A stretch of DNA of 11,222 bases from an uncultured archaeon (GTDB taxonomy: Archaea > Asgardarchaeota > Lokiarchaeia > Sigyniarchaeales > SOKP01). Position 1 is the first letter of the stretch, and every line of letters starts with the position of its first letter. A program made the translations under genes and the position numbers. Where the stretch lies: the NCBI GenBank assembly GCA_964388035.1, contig CAYLZE010000142.1, forward strand, positions 1 to 11,222, in the 5' to 3' direction. The notes below the pieces were generated by a model. It was not told the origin of the DNA, searched no databases, and saw only the letters and a list, made by a program, of their open reading frames with translations. Positions 1 to 11,132 of this stretch are shown here, piece after piece.

Positions 1-1
1 C

Positions 2-160
2 AAGGAATCAATATATGAATCACGATCTAAAAAAATCTTAAAATGGTGAAGTAAATATCCCCAGGAAATTAAATTTGTTCGCTCCCTACCGAAAAGTGCA
101 GTTGGATAAATTTTAAGAAGAGTAATTCGAGATAAGGAGACTGAAAAAGCAGGTAAGTAA
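2..160 (+). pseudogene. Degraded C-terminal fragment of an AMP-binding (ANL superfamily) acyl-CoA synthetase, FadD-like
   Basis: Frame 2 reads KESIYESRSKKILKW*SKYPQEIKFVRSLPKSAVG*ILRRVIRDKETEKAGK*. KYPxEIxFVxxLPKSAVG(K)ILRR is the ANL A10 motif. In-frame stops are TGA 47-49 and TAA 107-109, the latter at the catalytic Lys. The natural stop is TAA 158-160. The 5' part lies outside the window. Confidence 0.85.
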
Positions 161-433: not shown

Positions 434-1603
434 TTAAAATAAATAAGGCGAATTTGTGATCTGTTCGGGTCTTCCCTTTTTTATGATAAAATTATCTTCC
501 AAATCAATAGCGCCCCAATTGGGGATAATTATTTTAGGTTCTAATGAGATTACCATGTTCTCTTCCAAGATTTCTTCATTATTTGCTAGGATATAAGGAG
601 GTTCATCTAACTCAAGACCGAGTCCGTGTCCAAGCCCCTGATAATAATATCCATCACCTTGAAAATAGGTTCCCAGATTTTTTTCATCTAAAATTGCTTT
701 AATCTTTTCATGGATAAGTTTTATAGAATTTCCTGCCCGTAAATACTCATTAGCAACATCCAGATAGGTATTTTTCAAAAGTAAATACCTTTCCTTAAAG
801 TTCTCGGGATATGTTTCAACAAAATACGTTCGTGCATGATCTGCATGATACCCTTGATATAGTACTGCATAATCGCACATCACGATATCACCTTTTACTA
901 GTCTTCTATCACTATAACAATAGGGCACGGCATTCGAAGTACCGCTTCCCGATAAAATAGGGAACGTGCTAGGCACCCAAAGATTTTTTCCACTTGCTAA
1001 AATAAACCAATTTTTTAAATATCCATTCACGATAGTAAAATGCATGCTGCCGTTTTTCATTGATGCGTGCATTACTTCCGCCGCAACTTCATTCTCTCTA
1101 ATTCCAGGTTTTAATATCTGGGGTATTACTTCTTGAGATTTTTCCGCTACTTTTCCCGCTTGACGCATTATCTCTAATTCGGCTGAGTCTTTAATCATCC
1201 GTAATCTCCTCAATTTTATTTCAATATTTACGATTTCAACCCCTTTTAACATGCTTTGATAGGAGAGAAAATAGGAAGCAGGCAAAGTATCCAATTCCAT
1301 TCCGATTCTTAAGTTCTCCAAGGAAGGATGATCTTTCTTCAGATACTCAACAATTTGACTAGTTTTTTTTAATTCGATTACATCTTTCAAAACGGATTCT
1401 TTTTGAGCTCTAAAAAAGTTTCTTCGAATAAATAAGTTAGATTCTCCGGTCTTTGAAAGCAAAAGGACTCCATATTGGGCAGTTCCAGTAAGCCAATATA
1501 AGTTTTGGAGATTAGTTATAAGGATATAATCTAATTCCTCCTCTTCAATTAAATTAAAGGTTTTCTTAAAGCGAATTTCGTAATTGAACAAATGATTCGG
1601 CAT
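434..1603 (-). CDS. M24-family (Xaa-Pro aminopeptidase/prolidase/creatinase fold) metallo-hydrolase
   Basis: 389 aa. Creatinase_N-like start (LDYILITNLQNLYWLTG) and linker LRMIKDSAELEIMRQAG. The five metal ligands lie in CDYAVLYQGYHADHARTY (D, D), GLGHGLG (H), SLEPK (E) and DLEDNF (E). Confidence 0.93.
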   Translation of the reverse strand: MPNHLFNYEIRFKKTFNLIEEEELDYILITNLQNLYWLTGTAQYGVLLLSKTGESNLFIRRNFFRAQKESVLKDVIELKKTSQIVEYLKKDHPSLENLRIGMELDTLPASYFLSYQSMLKGVEIVNIEIKLRRLRMIKDSAELEIMRQAGKVAEKSQEVIPQILKPGIRENEVAAEVMHASMKNGSMHFTIVNGYLKNWFILASGKNLWVPSTFPILSGSGTSNAVPYCYSDRRLVKGDIVMCDYAVLYQGYHADHARTYFVETYPENFKERYLLLKNTYLDVANEYLRAGNSIKLIHEKIKAILDEKNLGTYFQGDGYYYQGLGHGLGLELDEPPYILANNEEILEENMVISLEPKIIIPNWGAIDLEDNFIIKKGRPEQITNSPYLF

Positions 1604-1623
1604 ACTATAGTAGAAAAATTAAC

Positions 1624-1648
1624 ATTGAAAAATAAACATTGTTTCAAT
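1624..1648. promoter_or_regulatory. Dyad ATTGAAA-N11-TTTCAAT enclosing the putative TATA box of the M24 gene
   Basis: Perfect 7-bp inverted arms at 1624-1630 and 1642-1648. The minus strand reads GAAACAATG-TTTATT (BRE/TATA-like), with TTTATT at 1636-1631, about 30 nt upstream of the ATG at 1603. Confidence 0.55.
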
Positions 1649-1764
1649 ATCCACCATCTCCACATTTCTATGATTATTTCAAAGTTGTAATTAAAGAAAA
1701 AAAACCCTGTTTTCATGTTAATCTCGCATTTTTCAGAAGACATTATTTGATTTCAATATTTAAA

Positions 1765-1789
1765 TTTGAATTTTTATAAAATATTCAAA
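1765..1789. promoter_or_regulatory. Dyad TTTGAAT-N11-ATTCAAA enclosing the putative TATA box (TTTATAAA) of the plus-strand operon
   Basis: Perfect 7-bp inverted arms at 1765-1771 and 1783-1789. TTTATAAA at 1773-1780. Same TTGAA-N13-TTCAA core as the 1624-1648 site. Confidence 0.55.
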
Positions 1790-1800
1790 ATTCGATATGT

Positions 1801-1872
1801 ATAGACATGCACAACACAAAATTTTAAAAAGGAGGTGATCTTTTCACAAATAACATCGTTGTGTATATATAT
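1801..1872 (+). promoter_or_regulatory. Candidate structured 5' leader RNA of the ECF operon
   Basis: ATGCACAAC (1807-1815) pairs with GTTGTGTAT (1858-1866) with one G-U, extendable to 1801/1872 with two mismatches. Inner hairpin AAAAGG (1827-1832)/TCTTTT (1839-1844). Contains AAGGAGGTGATC (1829-1840). No known riboswitch consensus recognised. Confidence 0.4.
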
Positions 1873-1904
1873 TCATAATAAAAAATTTAGGTGTTTAAAA
1901 AAAT

Positions 1905-2549
1905 ATGAGTTTTCGTGAAAGTGGTAAAACAAGCGAAAAATGGACCACAAGGGATATTTTATACGTGGTAATTCTTGCCGTTGTCGGTGCAATTTATTCC
2001 ACATTTTCTCCATTGGGCAGCATAATTAATACAGCATTTCCATTTCCAGGTTCTGGATGGTTAGTAGCGGGGATCCATACCATGTTCATTTTAATAGCTT
2101 TTGGTTTGACACTTAAGTACTTTTCAGCGACAGCAGCAGGGGCAATTAAAGGACTTTTTGAATTGATTTTTGGAAACGTAAGGATTGGCGTGTTAATAAT
2201 TGTTCAAGCTGCAATGATTGGACTTATCATTGACATTTTTTATTTTCTGTTCAAAGCTTTAAATAAAGAAAAAGCACAAAATGATGAGGGAATTCTTAGC
2301 TGGCTTCTTCCTTGGACGATTGGCTCGGGGATTGGATCAGCATTAGCACTCCCCATTTTCTATGGTGCCTTAGGTTTATTGGAAAATCCTACCATGCTAG
2401 CCACATTGCCATTCATGATGTTCATTGCTTTTATTTCCGGCGTCGTGTTTGGCGCTATTGCTCGCGTAATCAGAGAAGTAATCGTGAAAGCAGGCGTGCC
2501 TTCTGCTATTATAAGAGGAGAACCACCTTCAATAGCTACTACGCAATAG
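1905..2549 (+). CDS. ECF transporter S (substrate-binding) component, substrate unresolved
   Basis: 214 aa, about 6 hydrophobic helices. N-terminal WTTRDILYVVILAVVGA is typical of S components (reminiscent of YkoE-like ones). Directly upstream of the A and T genes. AGGTG at 1889-1893 is a weak RBS. Confidence 0.85.
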   Translation: MSFRESGKTSEKWTTRDILYVVILAVVGAIYSTFSPLGSIINTAFPFPGSGWLVAGIHTMFILIAFGLTLKYFSATAAGAIKGLFELIFGNVRIGVLIIVQAAMIGLIIDIFYFLFKALNKEKAQNDEGILSWLLPWTIGSGIGSALALPIFYGALGLLENPTMLATLPFMMFIAFISGVVFGAIARVIREVIVKAGVPSAIIRGEPPSIATTQ

Positions 2550-2559
2550 TGAGAGAAAG

Positions 2560-4224
2560 ATGGTTGAAATTTCAATTGAGGATCTTACATTTATTTATCA
2601 AGGATCCACTACTCCAGCCCTGAAGGATATTAATCTCTCTATTCCGCAAGGGAGCTTCATGTTAATTGCAGGACCCTCTGGAAGCGGAAAAAGCACGCTA
2701 GTAGATTGCATAAATGGGTTAATCCCTCATAGATATAGAGGGCGTGTGAAAGGAGTTGTTCGAGTGGACGGAGAAGATTGGTTTGATGTGGATTATTCCA
2801 TTTTAAGTCAGAAAATTGGGTTGGTAAGACAAGATCCTGATTCTCAGTTGGCTTGTGAAGATGTTTATTCTGAAGTAGCTTTTGGACCGGAAAATTTATG
2901 TCTTTCTCGAAGTGAAATCAACGAGCGGGTGGAATGGGCTTTAAAAGCGGTAGATGGCATGAGACTTATTAAAAGGAAAATAGCCACCTTATCGGGAGGA
3001 GAAAAACAGAGGATTGCTATTGCTTCCATGCTTACCATGAAGCCAGAGATTCTCATTTTGGATGAACCGAGCTCTTTTCTGGATATTCCCGCAATGCAAA
3101 CTCTTTGTAAGAATTTAATAACTCTCCGAAAAATGGCTCCGAAAATGACGATAATCATTATAGATCATGAATTATTCAATATTCTCCCATTAATACAAAA
3201 TTTAATTATCATGAATCAAGGAGAAATCTATCTGGAAGGACATCCTATAACCTTAATAACAACAAGACTTGATGAAGTAGAGAAAATTGGGATAAGAATT
3301 AATCCCGCACTTTTAAATTACATGAAGGAAATGATCCCCGATGAAACAACAGAATCAATTAAAGAAGGAAACCAAGATTATATATATAAGAAATTAAACA
3401 AAAAGTTACTATTTGAACTGGAGTGCATGAATGAATTTAATGAAAGATTGCAATTTACAGGAGTTCCCTTATTAGAAGCAAAAAACTTATCTTATACGTA
3501 TGAAAAAAATGACTTAGAATCATCAAAGAAGGGGCAAAAACCTTTATATCCTAATAATAAGCTAGCTATTAAAAATCTTGATTTTAAAATCTATGAGGGA
3601 GATTTTATTTCTCTCATGGGGAATAATGGAAGCGGAAAAACAACCTTATTGAAATTATTAGCCGGACAATTAAAACCCACGAAAGGTACTATTCTTTATA
3701 AAGATCATGAGCTCTCATCCCTAGATCCTTTTCAATATCTTAAAAATAGTGGAATGATTTTTCAAAATCCAGAACACCAATTTTTCAAGAGAACAGTTCA
3801 AGATGAAATTTATTACGGTCCAGACAATTTCAACCTAGAAAGATCCTCAATTGAGACGTATGTTGCCACGTTAATCAATCATCTAAAGTTAGATCAATAT
3901 TTATCAAAGTTACCCTTTTGCTTGAGTTGGGGAGAAAAAAGAAGAGTAAACATGGCTAGTGTTCTTTCCTATCTACCAAGCATCCTATTTCTGGATGAAA
4001 TCTTCATTGGTCAAGATCTCCATAATGTGATGATTCTCCTCAAAGTTCTAAAAGGATTAAATCGGAGATTAAATCAAACAATCATTATATGCACCCATAA
4101 ACCCGATTTGATTCTAACCTTAGCTAATCGGGTAATTTTAATGGATAAAGGCGAGATTATTATAAATGGAAGCATAAAAGAAAATTTAACCAATATATAC
4201 AATTTTTTTTTTAATTATAACTAA
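2560..4224 (+). CDS. ECF transporter duplicated ATPase (fused A-A')
   Basis: 554 aa with two ABC domains. First: GPSGSGKST, QDPDSQ, LSGGEKQR, LILDEP. Second: GNNGSGKTT, FQNPEHQ, LSWGEKRR, LFLDE..GQD. The QxPxxQ Q-helix and VAFGPEN are ECF/CbiO-type signatures. Confidence 0.95.
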   Translation: MVEISIEDLTFIYQGSTTPALKDINLSIPQGSFMLIAGPSGSGKSTLVDCINGLIPHRYRGRVKGVVRVDGEDWFDVDYSILSQKIGLVRQDPDSQLACEDVYSEVAFGPENLCLSRSEINERVEWALKAVDGMRLIKRKIATLSGGEKQRIAIASMLTMKPEILILDEPSSFLDIPAMQTLCKNLITLRKMAPKMTIIIIDHELFNILPLIQNLIIMNQGEIYLEGHPITLITTRLDEVEKIGIRINPALLNYMKEMIPDETTESIKEGNQDYIYKKLNKKLLFELECMNEFNERLQFTGVPLLEAKNLSYTYEKNDLESSKKGQKPLYPNNKLAIKNLDFKIYEGDFISLMGNNGSGKTTLLKLLAGQLKPTKGTILYKDHELSSLDPFQYLKNSGMIFQNPEHQFFKRTVQDEIYYGPDNFNLERSSIETYVATLINHLKLDQYLSKLPFCLSWGEKRRVNMASVLSYLPSILFLDEIFIGQDLHNVMILLKVLKGLNRRLNQTIIICTHKPDLILTLANRVILMDKGEIIINGSIKENLTNIYNFFFNYN

Positions 4225-4244
4225 AAAACAGAATTCAGATCAAT

Positions 4245-5366
4245 ATGTTTGTTAGAAAACAGTTAGAAAGAAGGGAAAGTAAGAATTTTTTCTTTCAATT
4301 AAATCCCATGGTTAAATTCCTATTTTTAATCATTTTTTCACTTGCATTATACATGATTACAGAATTAATTCTCATTTTTATCATATTCTTAATTACTATT
4401 TGTATTATTCCTTTAACTGGTCTTAAATTTAAGGAAGTAAAGACCAGTATTTCATATTTACTTAAAATTCAAGTTATTACCTCTATTTTTTCCATAATAG
4501 GTTGGTATGAAGACGGGGTGGAACCCTTATTTTATCCTTTTCCCCGGAATTGGCCAATTTTAGGGGATGCACTTCCAATCTTTCATAAAGGACTTTATTA
4601 TAGCGTTAGAAATCCCCTTATTATCTCAATTGTGTTACTAACTGCTTTAATTTTTATATATACGACGGATCCTCCCAAATTTGCAACCTCTCTCAATCAT
4701 CAATTGAAAGTCCCCATACGTGTATCACAATGTTTGATTATCGGCATGAATTTTGTACCTATCATCCAAAATGAAATGCACATTCTCCGTGATGCACAAA
4801 GAGCGAGAGGGGAGAATTTATTTGATTTCACAAAAAAGAAACGAGCAAAGAACACCATAATGTCAGCATTGTCCTTTCTTACTACTTTAATGATTATCAT
4901 TTTACGCAAGGTAGATAATCTTAGTGTTTCTTTGGACAAAAGAGGTTTGGGCCTTTATAAAGAGAGAACGGAAGAACCAGTGAGATGGAATAAAAAAGAT
5001 ACCATCATCTTGATCATTACATTAGTAATACCGCTATTGATCATACTTTATAATTTTAAATTGTTTACTTTAAATGTACCCAGTCTACTTTCTTTATTTA
5101 CAAAATGGGGTATTATAGGATGGGTTACGAATAATCAATGGATTTTTGGAGCATTTATCTTTTCTTGCGTTGGTTTTTTCATACTTTTAGTTTTAAATTT
5201 TTATAGAAAAAGGAAGACGTTGAAAAAAAATTTAGAAAGTTTAAATGATTCTACTCTCTTTCCAGAACAGATCTATTCTGAAAAATTAACGGAAGCGGTA
5301 AAATTAATTAAGAGTTTAGATAATACCCTTGAATATCCTATTACTGCGGGGTTTACTAAACATTAA
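4245..5366 (+). CDS. ecfT: ECF transporter T component (EcfT/CbiQ family) with C-terminal extension
   Basis: 373 aa. LNPMVK start, YTTDP, coupling-helix motifs DAQRARG and SLDKRG, multiple TM helices. Confidence 0.9.
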   Translation: MFVRKQLERRESKNFFFQLNPMVKFLFLIIFSLALYMITELILIFIIFLITICIIPLTGLKFKEVKTSISYLLKIQVITSIFSIIGWYEDGVEPLFYPFPRNWPILGDALPIFHKGLYYSVRNPLIISIVLLTALIFIYTTDPPKFATSLNHQLKVPIRVSQCLIIGMNFVPIIQNEMHILRDAQRARGENLFDFTKKKRAKNTIMSALSFLTTLMIIILRKVDNLSVSLDKRGLGLYKERTEEPVRWNKKDTIILIITLVIPLLIILYNFKLFTLNVPSLLSLFTKWGIIGWVTNNQWIFGAFIFSCVGFFILLVLNFYRKRKTLKKNLESLNDSTLFPEQIYSEKLTEAVKLIKSLDNTLEYPITAGFTKH

Positions 5367-5390
5367 ATAAAAAATTAAAAAAAGTGAATG

Positions 5391-5414
5391 AAATTAACTA
5401 AAATTAGTCAATTT
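5391..5414. promoter_or_regulatory. Near-perfect palindrome upstream of the radical SAM gene
   Basis: AAATTAACTAA-AA-TTAGTCAATTT (10 of 11 bp match), running into TTTTTAAAT (5412-5420). Confidence 0.3.
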
Positions 5415-5440
5415 TTAAATCAATAAATTTTCTAAGAAGT

Positions 5441-6472
5441 GTGAAGATATTTATGAAATGTACTAATTGCGAATATAATTGCGAATTATCAGAAAATTGG
5501 TCCGGAATATGTAACATGTATAGAGTTAACGATTCTAAAATAGAAAATAGATTTTATTCGGAATATTTAATCAGTGAATTTTATCGGACGTGGATTGAAT
5601 CGGTTCCAATGTTTCATTTCATGCCGGGCATAGTCATCATTAATGTGGGTACGATTAGTTGCAATTTTGATTGCAAATATTGCCTGAATGAACGTTTGGC
5701 CCGCGTTAATCCAAGTAATTCTGAACGAATAAACTTATATCCTGAAAACCCAGAACGGTTACTTCGACGAGCAAAGTTAGGGGGGGCAAGAGCAATCGTA
5801 TTCGGGGAAAATGAACCGGCTGTGAGCATGAATTATGTTTTGGACCTTGCCAAGGAATGTCATAAAAACAATGTACCCTTTGGGATTTCGACGAACGGAT
5901 TTATGACAACCAAGGCATTGAATCCCTTACTCGAAGAAGGAATTGATATTGTGAATTTCGATATAAAATCTTTTAACCCGCAATTCCTAAAAGATATAAT
6001 AGGCATAAAAGGCAAACTTGCAGAGGAAGCTAAAAATATCTTTCTGAGAAATTTAAAGATAATTAATAATGATGCAAATGTAAAAATGCTCGAAGTTAAT
6101 ACTCCGGTGCTACATAACATGAATAGCTTCGAAATCGTCGATATCGCAAAGGAAATTGCAAATATTAGTAAGAAAATTCCTTATCATGTGCAAAGAGTAG
6201 TTCCAGAATATCAATATAAAGATCCAAATCCTAATATTGGACAAAGATTAGATACTAAAGAATATTATCAAGAAATTAAAGAGATGTTGGATTATGCCTA
6301 TTTTGGAGCTTTTCCTAATTCTCCACACGTGGATACATATTGCCCCAATTGTAAAAAACTTTTGATTAAAAGGGCCGACCATGGCGGATGTCAATGTGAA
6401 TTATTAACTAATGCGTTAACCACAAATCGTTGCCCAAATTGTAAGGAGGAAATAAATATAATTTTACCTTAA
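5441..6472 (+). CDS. Radical SAM enzyme, AmmeMemoRadiSam / PFL-activating-enzyme-like family
   Basis: CNFDCKYC (CX3CX2C, 5660-5683). N-terminal CTNCEYNC-x8-GIC cluster, IESVPMFHFMPG, NEP, STNGF, NFDIKSF. C-terminal DTYCPNC...RCPNC zinc ribbon. The start may be ATG 5453 rather than GTG 5441. Confidence 0.92.
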   Translation: MKIFMKCTNCEYNCELSENWSGICNMYRVNDSKIENRFYSEYLISEFYRTWIESVPMFHFMPGIVIINVGTISCNFDCKYCLNERLARVNPSNSERINLYPENPERLLRRAKLGGARAIVFGENEPAVSMNYVLDLAKECHKNNVPFGISTNGFMTTKALNPLLEEGIDIVNFDIKSFNPQFLKDIIGIKGKLAEEAKNIFLRNLKIINNDANVKMLEVNTPVLHNMNSFEIVDIAKEIANISKKIPYHVQRVVPEYQYKDPNPNIGQRLDTKEYYQEIKEMLDYAYFGAFPNSPHVDTYCPNCKKLLIKRADHGGCQCELLTNALTTNRCPNCKEEINIILP

Positions 6473-6533
6473 AGAAAAAAAATACAAGTAAATTTGGAAG
6501 TGAAGCCTCCAAATATAAAATGATTAATAGGGG

Positions 6534-7859
6534 ATGGAAATAAACCAAAACATTATTCAGAGAGAATGTTTGCAAATTACCAATGATGGACGCAACATTT
6601 TTGATTTGCGAACGGGAGAAAAGATAGAATATAACGGTAACCAAAAGATCGCGGGAGTATTACCCATAAATTTTTCGGGACCAATATATCCAGGAGATCT
6701 GTCTGAAACTAGTTCAGCTTGGGCTATAGACTCCGCAATCGCTCTTAATAAGATTTATCCTTCCCAATTTTTCTTTTTCATATTTGCAGACCCCATGTTA
6801 AAAGCTAATTATCAAGAGGACCCCACAGATAAAATTCGCAAAAAGGCAATAGAAAATGCATATAATCAAATTAAGCGATTCACAGACTATTGGAAAGAAT
6901 CTTTTAAAGAAGAGATGCGAGTTTTGGTAATTGGGACCGGGCAAGTAGTTGAATTTGAAGGATTTATTGACTTGATTGAATTAACAGAAAAGTATTCGAA
7001 GTACACTTTCATGCCCTTTGAAGGATATACGGGTATTTTTCTTCAAGATCTGCATGGATATGATTATGTTGCGGGAAAGGAACCAATAATAAAATTAGGA
7101 TCCCGAACTCCAAAATTGCGTTCTAATTTTACAAGGGAAGAAGTTCAATTCTTAGAAGAATTAAAGAAGAAGGAATATTTTAATCAAGTCATAATTACAT
7201 CCGATCTAATTGAAAGAAACGAAACTTTTTCCACAGAATTTCTTTCATATGCACCCGATATTCTATGTACGGCGAAACCTGGGAAATATTTCATGTTTCC
7301 TACAGCAACTTCCCGCAAGTTATATAAAATTCAATCTTATACAAGACAAATCGGATATACAACATTGAATGATTGGGACTTGTCAATCCCGTTGGAAAAA
7401 ATAACAGATATTTTTTCATCAACCCAAAAAAATGTACGGAAAGGCCCATCAGCATTAGCTATCATCGAAGCAGCTGGACCTCAAGAACTGCCAAATTACG
7501 AAGGACAAATTGACACTACATGGAAAAATTTACCTTATGGAGCCGATCATAATTTTCTTTTTTCTATTAATACGGGAAAGTCACTCTTTCATACTCCTTT
7601 TCCTTATGGAAGTGATCCTCAAGCAATTAGAACTAATTACTATCCTTACAGTTGGGGGAAAGAACCCCTATCAAATGCAATTGGGACATTTCTCTCTTTA
7701 AAGGATGTAAAAGCTCGCTCTATCGCAGCGGGATCTCGTTCCATGTTTTTACACATGTTTTCGAGTGCAGATATCGTCGTGGAACCATGGGTACGAAATC
7801 GCACGGAAAATGGAGTTCTCTACGTTTTAAATAAAAATCAAATTTTTCAAAAATTATAA
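6534..7859 (+). CDS. Uncharacterised soluble protein; probable circularly permuted, degenerate alkaline-phosphatase/nucleotide-pyrophosphatase-fold protein
   Basis: 441-aa ORF in an operon position, so the CDS itself is secure. The fold call rests on by-eye motif order: FFFFIFADP, VLVIGTG, APDILCTAKPGKYF and ITDIF precede ALAIIEAAG, SINTG and RSIAAG. Confidence 0.55.
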   Translation: MEINQNIIQRECLQITNDGRNIFDLRTGEKIEYNGNQKIAGVLPINFSGPIYPGDLSETSSAWAIDSAIALNKIYPSQFFFFIFADPMLKANYQEDPTDKIRKKAIENAYNQIKRFTDYWKESFKEEMRVLVIGTGQVVEFEGFIDLIELTEKYSKYTFMPFEGYTGIFLQDLHGYDYVAGKEPIIKLGSRTPKLRSNFTREEVQFLEELKKKEYFNQVIITSDLIERNETFSTEFLSYAPDILCTAKPGKYFMFPTATSRKLYKIQSYTRQIGYTTLNDWDLSIPLEKITDIFSSTQKNVRKGPSALAIIEAAGPQELPNYEGQIDTTWKNLPYGADHNFLFSINTGKSLFHTPFPYGSDPQAIRTNYYPYSWGKEPLSNAIGTFLSLKDVKARSIAAGSRSMFLHMFSSADIVVEPWVRNRTENGVLYVLNKNQIFQKL

Positions 7860-7958
7860 CTAAAACTTTTTCAAGAAATGGTAGAATTATCAAAATAAGA
7901 AAAGAAAATTGAATAAAAACAAAAAATATAATAAAAAGTTAAAGAATTTCAAAAAATA

Positions 7959-8777
7959 GTGAAAATAATGACTGAATTCATAAAAAAAACAAAAGAAATA
8001 TTAGATCAAAAAGTAAAAAACATTAAAATCCCCGAGACAAAAGGGGTTTTAGTGGGTAGAGGATACCAAGCGGTATTATTAGACGGCACGATGGGGGTTG
8101 GTTTTGCGCCTCGCCGTCCATCTCCAACTTGTACGGTTTTTAAAAAGCCCGGGAGTTTGTATAAAACACCTGCTATTGAATTGGCAGAACTTGTCATTTC
8201 TGAGGTACCTATCGAACGGTCAATAGGAATAGGAGCATTAAATGCCATAAGTCAGTGTATCGTTGATTCTTCTCCAGAAAATTATAACAAATATATCAAC
8301 CTTGATTTGGAAAAACTAATCCCATTAAATAAGAATATTAAAGTTGGAATGGTGGGGCAAATCGGCCCTTTTATTAAACTATTAGCCACTAATTCTGCTG
8401 GTTTAACCATTATTGATGATAATCCTGCAATTCAGACGGGAAAACAAGGGAATAACATAATAGTATCTCGAAATATTGCTGATATAGAGAATTGCGATGT
8501 AGTAATCATTACGGGATCGACTGTTATCGAACATTCTCTTGAAGGCCCCTTGAAATACGCCTCAAATGCTATATTTAGGGTAGTTATTGGCCCTTCAGCA
8601 TCCTGGATTCCGGATGCCGCATTTGACCTTGGACTTGATGCAGTTTCTGGCATGAAATTCATCAATCCCGATGACGCTTTTCGGGTTATCATGGAAGGTG
8701 GCGGAACCATGCATTTCGTAAAATACGCTGAGAAATACACTTTAACCAAGGAAGCCCTTCCTGATAATATTAGCTAA
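7959..8777 (+). CDS. DUF364 (PF04016) Rossmann-like protein with DUF4213-type N-terminal domain, paralog 1
   Basis: ERSIGIGALNA, KVGMVG, CDVVIITGST, VIGPSA and GLDAVSG motifs. Start is GTG 7959 or ATG 7968. Confidence 0.85.
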   Translation: MKIMTEFIKKTKEILDQKVKNIKIPETKGVLVGRGYQAVLLDGTMGVGFAPRRPSPTCTVFKKPGSLYKTPAIELAELVISEVPIERSIGIGALNAISQCIVDSSPENYNKYINLDLEKLIPLNKNIKVGMVGQIGPFIKLLATNSAGLTIIDDNPAIQTGKQGNNIIVSRNIADIENCDVVIITGSTVIEHSLEGPLKYASNAIFRVVIGPSASWIPDAAFDLGLDAVSGMKFINPDDAFRVIMEGGGTMHFVKYAEKYTLTKEALPDNIS

Positions 8778-8823
8778 TGAAAGGTAATTTTCTGTTAATT
8801 ATATAAGAAGTAATGCAATAATA

Positions 8824-10164
8824 ATGAAAGATAATGGCACTAATATTCATTCAATGGATTCAATGCCTACACAGAAGGGTCAATTTTACTTTCTCAGTTT
8901 CTCAATGCTCTTACATTTCGCAATTAATGGGTTATTAACACCCTATATTGCAATTTATTTTCGACAACAAGGGCTCCCATTTGTCATGATTTTCTTCATA
9001 TTCATGGCGAACAATGCGGGTAATATAGCCCAACCAATGTGGGGAGGCCTTTCTGACAAATATAATAAACGAAAGATTTTTTTATTGATTGCTACAATAA
9101 TGTGGACTGCGTCCACCTTGATTATTTCATTATTACCCGAATTCTTAATCTTTGTTATTTTTTATGGTATAGCATCTTTTTTCGGAAGTAGTGTTCAGCC
9201 TGTAGGAAGATCCCTCATATCTCTAATTACAAATAAGGTAGATGAGACGGAATATCAATCAAAATTTGGCGTGTTAATGTCCACTGCTTTCATGGTTTCA
9301 AGCTGGGGTGGGGGATTAATCATAGCTTACATCAATTTTAACATGTTATTTTATTTAACCTTTCTAATGGCCATCATTTCTTTAATTATCCTCATCACGA
9401 CGGTACATGAACGCCAAGTTGAAACAAATAACGTAAATTATAAGCATATAATCGATTATCATTCCGAGAATTTAGATCAATATGAACATCAAGTAAGTGT
9501 AACCTCTCCAACAAGCTTTAATCAAAAGTTTGTTTCTCTCCTCAAAAATAAGGGTTTTATCATAGTCTTGCTCCTTTCTTTCTTTGGGAGCATTGCGTTT
9601 TACTTATTTACCAGCTTTTTCTCAGTTTTTTATGTGGAAGGTGGAGGGGATATTGCAATGTTAGCTAATGCAATGTTAGCTAATTTCGTGATCTTTATGG
9701 GAAGTAATTATTTGGGAGAAGCTTTAACCAAAAGGCGATATAAAGAAAGTGAAGAAATTATAAAAAAAGGCAAATTAGGGTTTTCTGAACAATTAAAAAT
9801 GGGTTTCATCCTGTGGTCAATCCTCGGTTTTTTCGTTCTATGTGCTTTGATTGCGATAATACCACAATCCTTATTTGTGATTTTAATAGTTTATAGTCTT
9901 CCCATGATACCTTTCTTTTTCATTTCAATGCTCGCTTTAACCGCAAAAGTAGTAGAACCCGATCAAAAGGCATTAGCTGTTGGACTTCAGGGCGTTTTTG
10001 TCTATGGAGGGAGAAGTATCACCATCTACGTTGGTGCCTTATTACTGGATACAGGGGGGTTTCAATTAGCCGCCACCTTCAACATTTTTCTCTTAATAAT
10101 ATTATCGATATTAATTCTAATCACGTATAAAAGTTTAAAAACGGCATTATTGAAAAAATTATAA
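8824..10164 (+). CDS. Major facilitator superfamily transporter
   Basis: 446 aa, about 12 TM helices in two halves with a long central hydrophilic loop. Motif A is WGGLSDKYNKRK. Confidence 0.92.
   Translation: MKDNGTNIHSMDSMPTQKGQFYFLSFSMLLHFAINGLLTPYIAIYFRQQGLPFVMIFFIFMANNAGNIAQPMWGGLSDKYNKRKIFLLIATIMWTASTLIISLLPEFLIFVIFYGIASFFGSSVQPVGRSLISLITNKVDETEYQSKFGVLMSTAFMVSSWGGGLIIAYINFNMLFYLTFLMAIISLIILITTVHERQVETNNVNYKHIIDYHSENLDQYEHQVSVTSPTSFNQKFVSLLKNKGFIIVLLLSFFGSIAFYLFTSFFSVFYVEGGGDIAMLANAMLANFVIFMGSNYLGEALTKRRYKESEEIIKKGKLGFSEQLKMGFILWSILGFFVLCALIAIIPQSLFVILIVYSLPMIPFFFISMLALTAKVVEPDQKALAVGLQGVFVYGGRSITIYVGALLLDTGGFQLAATFNIFLLIILSILILITYKSLKTALLKKL
9655..9684 (+). repeat. Perfect 15-nt in-frame tandem duplication inside the MFS gene
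   Basis: GCAATGTTAGCTAAT occurs twice (9655-9669, 9670-9684) and encodes AMLAN-AMLAN. Confidence 0.9.
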
Positions 10165-10223
10165 TCTGAAATTTCTTTTGTATTTAAAATTAAAAATTAA
10201 AAAATGTAAAAAAATGAAAAGAT

Positions 10224-11060
10224 ATGGTAAGTGAAATTTTAAAAGAAGCTTATGAAATTTTGAAGGAATATCATGGAAGTAATCCACCAGAGATAAAAAG
10301 TATTGTAAGGGGACAAAAATTTGTTGGAGTTCAGTTATCAAACATGAGCATAGGACTTTCTCTAATAGAACATGAATGGAAATATGATTTTCCTTTATTC
10401 CTGAAAAGAAGTGAAGAAAGTCTTCCGCAAACCTATGAATTAGCAAAGACTGCATTTGAAGGAACAGAGATATCTGTCTGCTATGGGATTGCTTGTTTAA
10501 ATGCATTAACCATGGATCTGTATTTCAACTCGGGAAAGTATAATTTGTTAATGGACATGGATGTGACTGATTTATGGAAAGATAAGATAAAACCTGACGA
10601 TATTATCGGCATGGTAGGATACATGTATCCCCTTGCGGATTTTTTCTTACCGCTCTGTTCTGAAATCATTTTACTTGATAAACATGCAATGGATGAAGGA
10701 AAAGATCCCCTTCCTAAAAAAATGACATATATCGAATCTTCAACGGGTTTAAAAGATGTAGATATCTTAATTGCCACCGGGAGTTCATTAATATATCATA
10801 GTACTGAAGAACTTATTGAAAGTACCCCGAATGCTCGATTAAAAGCAATAATTGGGCCATCCGTATGTCTTCCTCCCGAACCCTTCTGGAAGCGGGGAGT
10901 CACCTATATCGGAGGTTCCTATGTAGAGGTTTCTTATTATCAAATGTTAGTTAAAGAAGATTTACGGGCAAACTGGCGAGCAGTGGCTAAAACTAAGGCA
11001 GACAGAGCTATAAAATTTGGAAAAAAAGAAGGGATTCGAAAATTAGGACTCCTTAAATAG
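10224..11060 (+). CDS. DUF364 (PF04016) Rossmann-like protein, paralog 2
   Basis: YGIACLNA, IIGMVG, VDILIATGSS, IIGPSV and GVTYIGG motifs, collinear with paralog 1. Confidence 0.83.
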   Translation: MVSEILKEAYEILKEYHGSNPPEIKSIVRGQKFVGVQLSNMSIGLSLIEHEWKYDFPLFLKRSEESLPQTYELAKTAFEGTEISVCYGIACLNALTMDLYFNSGKYNLLMDMDVTDLWKDKIKPDDIIGMVGYMYPLADFFLPLCSEIILLDKHAMDEGKDPLPKKMTYIESSTGLKDVDILIATGSSLIYHSTEELIESTPNARLKAIIGPSVCLPPEPFWKRGVTYIGGSYVEVSYYQMLVKEDLRANWRAVAKTKADRAIKFGKKEGIRKLGLLK

Positions 11061-11065
11061 TAGGA

Positions 11066-11132
11066 TTTCAAGTTCTTTTTCTTCAATTTTTAATAGAACA
11101 GAACTACAATATATTTTATTTTTATTATCTTT
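11066..11132 (+). terminator. Oligo-T terminator region at the end of the operon
   Basis: ttctttttcttcaattttt and attttattttttattatcttt follow the TAG TAG double stop. This contrasts with the mostly A-rich internal spacers. Confidence 0.5.

Follow-up and report, generated by a model that had tools for sequence, protein, structure and literature searches.

We analysed an 11,222-nucleotide stretch of DNA (the window) that constitutes an entire 11.2-kb contig (CAYLZE010000142.1; C142 in our numbering) of a 5.47-Mb, low-GC metagenome-assembled genome (MAG) of an uncultured archaeon of the Lokiarchaeia. The window carries eight same-strand genes that encode, in order, the S component, the fused A-A' double ATPase and the T component of an energy-coupling factor (ECF) transporter, a radical S-adenosylmethionine (SAM) enzyme, an orphan protein of 441 amino acids (aa) here designated X (P0001), a DUF364 protein, a major facilitator superfamily (MFS) transporter and a second DUF364 protein. 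The eight-gene set is a conserved operon in Loki-type archaea. On balance, we favour the reading that the operon is an accessory module for the acquisition or processing of tungsten/molybdenum (W/Mo), or of their cofactor, with a complex of the radical SAM enzyme and X as its catalytic core. The operon probably supplies W/Mo cofactor, because bacterial relatives of the radical SAM-X pair sit under tungsten-cofactor riboswitches. The features of the window, as identified by open reading frame (ORF) listing and by scans for Pfam and NCBIfam families, are as follows.

434-1603, minus strand: M24 metallopeptidase with Creatinase_N domain, Xaa-Pro dipeptidase-like (PF00557, 139.5 bits; PF01321, 71.9 bits)
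1604-1904, no strand: AT-rich divergent intergenic region with presumed promoters; palindrome at 1756-1798 and repeated TTTCAATAT words
1905-2549, plus strand: ECF S component, divergent PF09819 member (35.7 bits; cut-off 25.2)
2560-4224, plus strand: fused EcfA-EcfA' double ATPase (TIGR04521, 381 bits, cut-off 330; TIGR04520, 367 bits; two ABC_tran domains)
4245-5366, plus strand: ECF T component with a C-terminal extension of ~130 aa (PF02361 CbiQ, 61.8 bits, cut-off 25, at residues 13-237 of 373)
5441-6472, plus strand: radical SAM enzyme (PF04055, 66.3 bits; TIGR04337, 133.5 bits, below the cut-off of 220)
6534-7859, plus strand: orphan protein X, 441 aa (no Pfam or NCBIfam match)
7959-8777, plus strand: DUF4213+DUF364 protein, gene a (PF04016, 115.7 bits; PF13938, 40.2 bits)
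8824-10164, plus strand: MFS transporter (PF07690, 103.5 bits), syntenic in L004 and L005
10224-11060, plus strand: second DUF364 protein, gene b (PF04016, 70.6 bits; PF13938, 22.6 bits, just below the cut-off of 23.5)
11061-11100, plus strand: T-rich stretch, likely transcript end (read from the sequence)

A conserved operon with a coupled radical SAM-X pair

The ORF listing and family scans agree with a preliminary description of this DNA, made from its letters, in finding eight co-oriented genes with spacers of 10-99 nt (10, 20, 74, 61, 99, 46 and 59 nt, in order), and the T-rich end that it had described is visible as oligo-T runs after the last stop codon. Gene order is shared with five other, independent Loki-type contigs from metagenomes or MAGs at 36-86% protein identity: L004 has all nine genes, including the M24 gene; L005 covers S through MFS before the contig breaks off; T, radical SAM, X and DUF364 are found on L006, and A', T, radical SAM and X on L025; and L044 has S through radical SAM. 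DUF364 gene a is syntenic in L004, L005 and L006, and the product of gene b, which is 24% identical to that of gene a, is 66.5% identical to the product of the last gene of L004. We conclude that the gene order is under selection, because it persists at this level of divergence on other contigs. That the genes are chance neighbours, or separately transcribed units with no common function, is highly improbable: the spacers of 46-99 nt could house internal promoters, but the order is preserved on all five other contigs, and natural fusions of the radical SAM enzyme to X occur. Scans for bacterial-type promoters and terminators gave results at chance level.

In the public record for L004, the second DUF364 gene (10647-11480) is annotated as a pair of short genes, of 87 and 150 aa. 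It aligns unbroken with gene b of the window (66.5% identity, residues 1-278), and, because the alignment is continuous, the split annotation is probably a gene-calling or sequencing artefact.

The radical SAM enzyme has its CX3CX2C motif (C74/C78/C81) inside the PF04055 domain, invariant in alignment with relatives. A Cys-rich motif near its N-terminus and CPxC pairs towards its C-terminus are common to X-linked relatives; its true start is probably the ATG at 5453. The enzyme is 31-35% identical to the radical SAM proteins that adjoin or are fused to bacterial X, and the proteins are mutually orthologous. A neighbourhood search with the 441-aa family, which the preliminary description had proposed as a check, shows recurrent linkage to this radical SAM subfamily: the radical SAM gene adjoins the X gene in every locus with flanking sequence, apart from that of an X paralogue on contig C43. 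Four proteins of ~730 aa (P0008, P0013, P0020 and P0037) are radical SAM-X fusions with the radical SAM part N-terminal, and the fusions fall at at least three places in the X family tree. The results of complex modelling gave an ipSAE score of 0.80 for radical SAM-X, versus 0.00 for the best of three controls, a mark reached by 58 of 80 solved complexes and by 2 of 110 mismatched pairs; model runs share at least 67% of contacts, with partner pLDDT of at least 87, and the closest predicted contacts of X (residues 255-262) include no invariant residue. The model supports binding and is not proof of it; the fusions are the stronger argument. From adjacency, fusion, orthology of the radical SAM partners and the complex model, we conclude that X and the radical SAM enzyme are coupled in function.

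The best curated match to the radical SAM enzyme is the AmmeMemoRadiSam family (TIGR04337), with which it shares the N-terminal Cys motif, CX3CX2C and the C-terminal Cys pairs. However, the label "AmmeMemoRadiSam-type", given to it in the preliminary description, does not hold. The score of the enzyme lies far below the TIGR04337 cut-off, three true members elsewhere in the same genome score 254-326 bits, family scans of the window's nine proteins detected no AMMECR1 or Memo domain, and the partner of the enzyme is X, unlike the AMMECR1/Memo partners of AmmeMemoRadiSam enzymes. As judged by these comparisons, the enzyme falls outside the AmmeMemoRadiSam family, as a sister to it. One true AmmeMemoRadiSam gene (326 bits; L029 10946-12028, minus strand; contig C97) lies ~5 kb from a TupABC-like tungstate transporter locus and is followed by a gene for a 676-aa protein with no family match. 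The nearest solved radical SAM cores are 6y1x (which we take to be NifB), MoaA, pyruvate formate-lyase activating enzyme (PFL-AE) and anaerobic sulfatase-maturating enzyme (anSME), all weak matches (25-41 bits), and what the enzyme shares with MoaA and NifB is no more than the generic core.

X belongs to a sparse family. An exhaustive profile search returned 60 matches among 1.8 billion representatives, a word-indexed search of 5.8 billion proteins returned six members, a single-protein scan for related loci matched two Alkaliphilus MAG contigs only, and 4 of 399 Clostridia encode X. Distant relatives have ~380 aa. In the family tree, Loki X forms a separate, long branch, and its sequence includes an insertion of ~50 aa. 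An AlphaFold model of X built from a 39-sequence alignment reached a pLDDT of 92 (versus 47 with a six-sequence input), and an ESM-Atlas cluster of 619 mostly bacterial members fits the fold at a template-modelling (TM) score of 0.75. In structure comparison, the model resembles members of the nucleotide pyrophosphatase/phosphodiesterase (NPP)/alkaline-phosphatase (AP) superfamily, namely ENPP6 (5ege), ENPP7 (5udy) and phosphonoacetate hydrolase (1ei6), over ~225 residues of the core fold, with Z of 8.3-8.7 (Z below 8 being common background according to the tool) and root-mean-square deviation of 3.9-4.9 Å; Foldseek gave E of 2e-4 at TM 0.31, and Atlas Phosphodiest clusters gave TM 0.43-0.47. 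Residues 7-349 of X correspond to residues ~135-407 of NPP-type enzymes, nothing at the N-terminus of X matches the catalytic segment with which NPPs begin, and the most conserved motif of X (R402, H407, D413 and E417) lies in a C-terminal beta-alpha-beta unit. A circular permutation of X relative to NPP is plausible on this model. The permuted NPP fold put forward in the preliminary description is borne out in part only, by a moderate likeness that Foldseek and the Atlas echo weakly. Similarity of sequence or profile was not found: hhalign comparison of X with an NPP alignment gave a probability of 1.6%, indicating no relation, and there is no match to PF01663 or to any other Pfam family.

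Only P53, W63, G348, R402 and E417 are invariant in the 39 family members, H407 is the sole well-conserved His, and the position of the AP nucleophile (S401/S403) is variously S, N, T, G, C, A or P. On the basis of fold and residue conservation, X may be a scaffold that binds and positions a tetrahedral oxyanion or a phosphate-bearing substrate, and not a hydrolase. A paralogue of X that is 58% identical is encoded on contig C43 (31650-32990; L003 9651-10991). Upstream of the paralogue are a gene for a corrinoid-binding protein and a gene for a URO-D-type methyltransferase, downstream of it are genes for an alpha/beta hydrolase and an alkyl-sulfatase-like metallo-beta-lactamase, and ~1.5 kb directly upstream of it (L003 8124-9651) has no long ORF.

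A different mechanism, compatible with a W/Mo role, would have the radical SAM enzyme act as a maturase that modifies X itself, with X as the working enzyme, much as sulfatases are matured by anSME and glycyl-radical enzymes are activated by their activases. The radical SAM enzyme comes from the activase-like AmmeMemoRadiSam/PFL-AE neighbourhood, the fold of X resembles that of the AP superfamily, which includes sulfatases, the two proteins occur fused and have a confidently predicted interface, and X has an invariant glycine, G348. The pair likewise resembles anSME and its sulfatase target in combining a radical SAM enzyme with an AP-superfamily-like protein, but, unlike that system, has no SPASM domain and no Cys/Ser-x-Pro-x-Arg target motif. 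Further, the AP nucleophile position is variable in the X family, a maturase that acts catalytically would not usually be joined 1:1 to its own substrate in one covalent chain, and the tightest contacts, at X residues 255-262, spare the invariant residues. We therefore regard the maturase mechanism as distinctly unlikely. Formylglycine-type maturation of X at the AP nucleophile position is ruled out, since that position is not conserved; modification of X at invariant G348 is possible.

Importers and riboswitches of bacterial relatives

In every bacterial locus with enough flanking sequence, the radical SAM-X pair, or the fusion, adjoins a FecCD/Peripla_BP_2/ABC importer (L008/L012, L009, L010, L022, L023, L024 and L031). 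Among solved structures, only two structural-genomics entries match the binding proteins of these loci better than MolA (HI_1472; E of 1e-16 to 1e-18), which is their closest characterised relative and ranks above siderophore, haem and B12 binders. MolA belongs to MolBC-A (HI1470/HI1471/HI1472), a type II ABC importer of Haemophilus influenzae that imports molybdate/tungstate (PMC4031551) and that shares with the bacterial radical SAM-X loci the theme of W/Mo uptake. MolBC-A has no radical SAM, X or DUF364 partner, and the window differs from it in having no FecCD or Peripla_BP_2 genes and in using an ECF transporter. The expectation in the preliminary description that importers would be interchangeable is thus confirmed, with ECF in Loki-type archaea and FecCD/Peripla_BP_2 in bacteria.

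An Rfam scan identified molybdenum cofactor (Moco) riboswitches (RF01055; 57-74 bits, versus a gathering score of 36) at four bacterial radical SAM-X loci, in Clostridia. In L012 and L023 the importer and radical SAM-X are both immediately preceded by riboswitches, and in L021 and L022 the riboswitches are just after X. No Moco riboswitch was found at six other bacterial radical SAM-X loci, from which the upstream DNA is mostly cut off, and bacterial radical SAM-X loci yielded Moco RNAs only, with no riboswitch for thiamine pyrophosphate (TPP), cobalamin or any other ligand. Stem P3 is missing in all five aligned elements (from L012, L021 and L023, the L022 copy being outside the alignment). 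The P3-less class of Moco riboswitch tracks tungsten-cofactor genes (Regulski et al.; PMC2408646). The informative riboswitches that the preliminary description had sought in bacterial loci are therefore Moco riboswitches, of the P3-less class where aligned. We conclude that the bacterial homologues of radical SAM-X are linked to Mo/W.

Two further observations concern these riboswitches. In L012, the importer and radical SAM-X are each preceded by a copy (4758-4884 and 8308-8434); the two copies are near-identical and no more than 3.6 kb apart, which suggests that the leader was recently duplicated. In L022 (5795-10716) and L021 (2676-7432), a Moco riboswitch (P3-less in L021) precedes genes for giant S-layer-homology proteins of ~1,510 aa with an Oxidored_molyb domain, followed in L022 by genes for further Oxidored_molyb, FMN_bind and 4Fe-4S proteins; these surface proteins could be extracellular tungsto/molybdoenzymes or cofactor-capturing receptors.

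The S component, double ATPase and T component of the window are encoded together (1905-5366), the arrangement of a dedicated (group I) ECF transporter. The YkoEDC system of Bacillus subtilis, for thiamine/hydroxymethylpyrimidine, is likewise a dedicated group I ECF transporter with a PF09819 S component, a double ATPase (YkoD, which we take to be the fused double ATPase) and adjacent genes; the Loki operon differs in having no thiamine context and in adding radical SAM-X, DUF364 and MFS genes. The Loki S component is 62-86% identical to the S components that head the same operon on other contigs, and phmmer detected no pairwise similarity between it and solved S components, YkoE included. With a hidden Markov model of Clostridial YkoE-type proteins the Loki S component scores 12-27 bits, and with the rival, riboswitch-linked branch it scores about the same.

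This second branch emerged from an analysis of PF09819 S components in 300 Clostridia, which fall into two groups: high scorers, which are YkoE-like, and low scorers, which are separate. One high-scoring, YkoE-like gene has a TPP riboswitch, and a Moco riboswitch is near 4 of the 16 low-scoring genes (1.5 kb examined). Extended loci show operons with the order riboswitch, molybdopterin-binding-domain (Oxidored_molyb) protein, PF09819 S component, small Oxidored_molyb protein, EcfA, EcfA', EcfT and MobB (L066 834-5736, L067 970-7478 and L069 2196-6485), with riboswitches at L066 361-482 and 739-860 (in tandem), L067 757-879 and L068 4457-4568 (minus strand). The L067 operon also encodes, after the S component, a lipoprotein with canonical NPP motifs. 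The riboswitch-linked ECF system is present in three of four X-positive Clostridia. Because these PF09819 operons are under Moco riboswitches and carry genes for molybdopterin-binding-domain proteins and MobB, we conclude that bacteria possess an ECF system associated with the W/Mo cofactor. The operons look like an uptake system for the pterin W/Mo cofactor or a precursor, and, as far as we can tell, are unpublished. They resemble the Loki operon in S-component Pfam family and in transporter class, and they co-occur in genomes with radical SAM-X. Unlike the Loki operon, they have an S component only distantly related to that of Loki, their genomes encode radical SAM-X elsewhere, and they carry the molybdopterin-binding-domain and MobB genes that the Loki operon does not have.

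These S-component relationships bear on an alternative reading, according to which the operon imports and remodels some other micronutrient, be it thiamine, the pyrimidine of thiamine, a cobamide, folate or a chelate of Ni/Co, and Loki radical SAM-X has diverged in substrate. YkoE, the only characterised PF09819 S component, binds thiamine (PMC5037267). The TPP riboswitch of the Clostridial YkoE-type gene fits with the alternative, as do the position of the Loki S component, as near the YkoE branch as the Mo/W-linked branch, the corrinoid protein and URO-D-type methyltransferase beside the C43 paralogue of X, and the long branch and insertion of Loki X. However, the riboswitches of bacterial radical SAM-X loci are exclusively Moco RNAs, the context of DUF364 points to Mo, W or V, and the Loki S component has no detectable pairwise similarity to solved S components. 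We consider import of another micronutrient improbable. Among the substrates listed in the preliminary description, the pterin/Mo-W cofactor is the one picked out by importer and riboswitch context, and cobamide, thiamine and folate are argued against.

DUF364 proteins, host context and flanking genes

The results for DUF364 are drawn from several sources. PDB relatives of the product of gene a are 3l5o and 3npg. In M. maripaludis, nifH shows cofitness with a modABC-DUF364 operon, and gene context has linked DUF364 to molybdate, tungstate and vanadium transporters (PMC2954201). In L023 a DUF364 gene closes the riboswitch-controlled importer operon; the linkage to DUF364 that the preliminary description had anticipated thus recurs in bacteria, but in that one bacterial locus only. 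The statement, also made there, that no reaction is assigned to DUF364 no longer holds: the DUF364 enzyme Orf5 cyclises the aminocarboxypropyl part of methylated SAM, the first biochemical result for the family and the only characterised DUF364 activity (PMC12930334), and, because it does so, the family binds SAM-type ligands and is able to cleave SAM derivatives. Orf5 (4-methylazetidinecarboxylate synthase) is in the same Pfam family as the DUF364 pair of the window, a comparison at family level only, and differs in context: it belongs to a peptide cluster of Streptomyces and works there with a cobalamin radical SAM methylase, whereas the context in the window is transport. Outside the window, the genome holds two further DUF364 genes; the fourth gene, on contig C2 (114617-115051), is broken by one TGA and one TAA and could be a pseudogene or a split gene.

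The presence of two DUF364 genes and an MFS gene in one operon with an importer raises the alternative of a metallophore cycle, in which DUF364, with radical SAM-X, would build a SAM-derived chelator, MFS would export it and ECF would retrieve the metal complex, as in the staphylopine Cnt system. The aminocarboxypropyl chemistry of SAM underlies nicotianamine-type chelators, and the Orf5 reaction acts on that moiety. However, enzymes that build chelators, such as an amino-acid racemase or an opine dehydrogenase, are absent, and most bacterial radical SAM-X loci have an importer and neither DUF364 nor MFS. Because most bacterial loci have this composition, the conserved core is import plus radical SAM-X, not synthesis plus export. 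We give the metallophore cycle a slim chance.

The host genome has 15-17 genes of the aldehyde:ferredoxin oxidoreductase (AOR) family (AFOR_N) in 17 places, an unusually large number, indicating heavy demand for tungsten cofactor, and also has a TupABC-like locus, moaC-moaA and two moeA genes. We conclude that the operon is accessory to a complete cofactor pathway in a tungsten-demanding host. Radical SAM-X as a replacement for MoaA/MoaC is ruled out by the canonical moaC-moaA and the two moeA genes. In a partial check of the Lokiarchaeial assignment, the genome proved to encode four actin-family proteins (best, 423 bits), of which none of 14 control prokaryotes has any.

The preliminary description had counted the divergent M24 hydrolase as a member of the pathway, and this part of it is not upheld. 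Synteny of the M24 gene with the operon is observed in the closest relative, L004, only; the genes upstream of the operon differ in L005, L044 and L045, being elsewhere NifU-like, leucine-rich repeat or TYW2 genes. The M24 protein, which scores 133.6 bits on the PepQ equivalog model NF040821 (cut-off 630), retains the aligned residues at the putative metal-ligand positions in alignment with 3q6d, positions that are presumably the Asp/Asp/His/Glu/Glu metal ligands. We conclude that it is probably a divergent neighbour, not a core member of the system. A dyad motif had also been proposed to be shared by the M24 promoter and the operon promoter. There is indeed a palindrome with 20-nt arms at 1756-1798, and the TTTCAATAT words recur at ~1219, ~1642 and ~1751, but we give these repeats no weight, because GC content is 27% and conservation of the intergenic region in L004 is patchy. 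The contig opens inside an ORF (1-160, plus strand) whose C-terminal residues, in our own reading, resemble the end of an AMP-forming acyl-CoA synthetase.

Proposed function of the module

We infer that the Mo/W link of the bacterial homologues carries over to the Loki operon, and with it a candidate substrate and a candidate series of steps. According to this proposal, the dedicated ECF transporter (S, A-A' and T) would import a scarce W/Mo-related species, which may be the metal in some bound form or a cofactor, or precursor, of the pterin type. X would bind tightly to the radical SAM enzyme, and in this complex a conserved pocket of X comprising R402, H407, D413, E417, D55 and E312 may hold the substrate where the radical-SAM barrel opens, so that it can undergo radical transformation; the putative scaffold of X is alkaline-phosphatase-like, a type that normally grips tetrahedral oxyanions or phosphates. 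The two DUF364 proteins, with a SAM-binding-type Rossmann domain, may act on the product or the metal, and MFS would move a by-product or a second substrate. As to what is imported, an organic cofactor is favoured by three points, namely that the transporters are of the vitamin class and that the bacterial ECF operons encode both molybdopterin-binding-domain proteins and an extracellular NPP; the MolA-like binding proteins favour an oxyanion. The chain of steps in the preliminary description (amide trimming, radical modification, hand-over to DUF364 and export of a by-product) is conjecture.

Several results weigh against a W/Mo role. The Loki loci and their neighbours contain nothing Mo/W-specific, and the window and the Loki loci L004-L006 and L025 have no Rfam match, and no RF01055 in particular; archaea offer no riboswitch for comparison. 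The Loki S component is, on profile scores, equidistant from the YkoE-type branch and the Clostridial riboswitch-linked branch. The homologues that carry the Mo/W link are only 19-26% identical, X is encoded in 2 of 400 Asgard genomes searched, no radical SAM gene was found beside the C43 paralogue of X, and the alignment of 39 X family members shows no canonical AP-superfamily nucleophile or bimetal ligands. The module would be dispensable for basic cofactor synthesis, because TupABC-like, MoaA, MoaC and MoeA genes are present. Finally, we are not aware of any radical SAM enzyme whose chemistry acts on Mo/W or on pterins obtained by salvage.

A more specific version of the W/Mo reading holds that the Loki operon and its bacterial relatives are the first prokaryotic route for salvage or remodelling of the pterin W/Mo cofactor, a breakdown product or a precursor, a possibility that we regard as tentative and rather doubtful. 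In such a route, import would be by ECF and, in bacteria, also by the MolA-like type II importer, aided by the surface molybdopterin-binding-domain proteins and the NPP lipoprotein; radical SAM-X would repair or re-tailor a phosphate-anchored compound by radical chemistry; and the DUF364 proteins would handle metal exchange. Salvage of the pterin Mo/W cofactor is, to our knowledge, without precedent in prokaryotes, and our literature searches on Moco riboswitches with radical SAM enzymes and on bacterial Moco salvage turned up no account of the module. There are parallels for other cofactors: BtuFCD with CbiZ carries out cobamide remodelling, and Isd carries out haem uptake and degradation. 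Both resemble the proposed module in having an importer co-encoded with cofactor-processing enzymes, and the bacterial relatives also in end-product control, but the enzymes of BtuFCD-CbiZ and Isd are unrelated to those of the window.

Much of anaerobic metabolism is driven by enzymes that use tungsten or molybdenum, and the routes of W/Mo supply known to us end at oxyanion pumps and the canonical Moa/Moe pathway. The module points to an unrecognised step in obtaining or reconditioning W/Mo cofactors, because the bacterial pair is switched by a cofactor-sensing riboswitch. The archaeal ECF/DUF364/MFS form of the importer plus radical SAM-X module shows the core moving between transporter classes. 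The operon provides a handle on DUF364 proteins beside metal transporters, on a sister group of AmmeMemoRadiSam enzymes and on a nucleophile-less alkaline-phosphatase-like fold, and, if the salvage route is real, a physiological role would for the first time be assigned to DUF364, to X and to this radical SAM subfamily.

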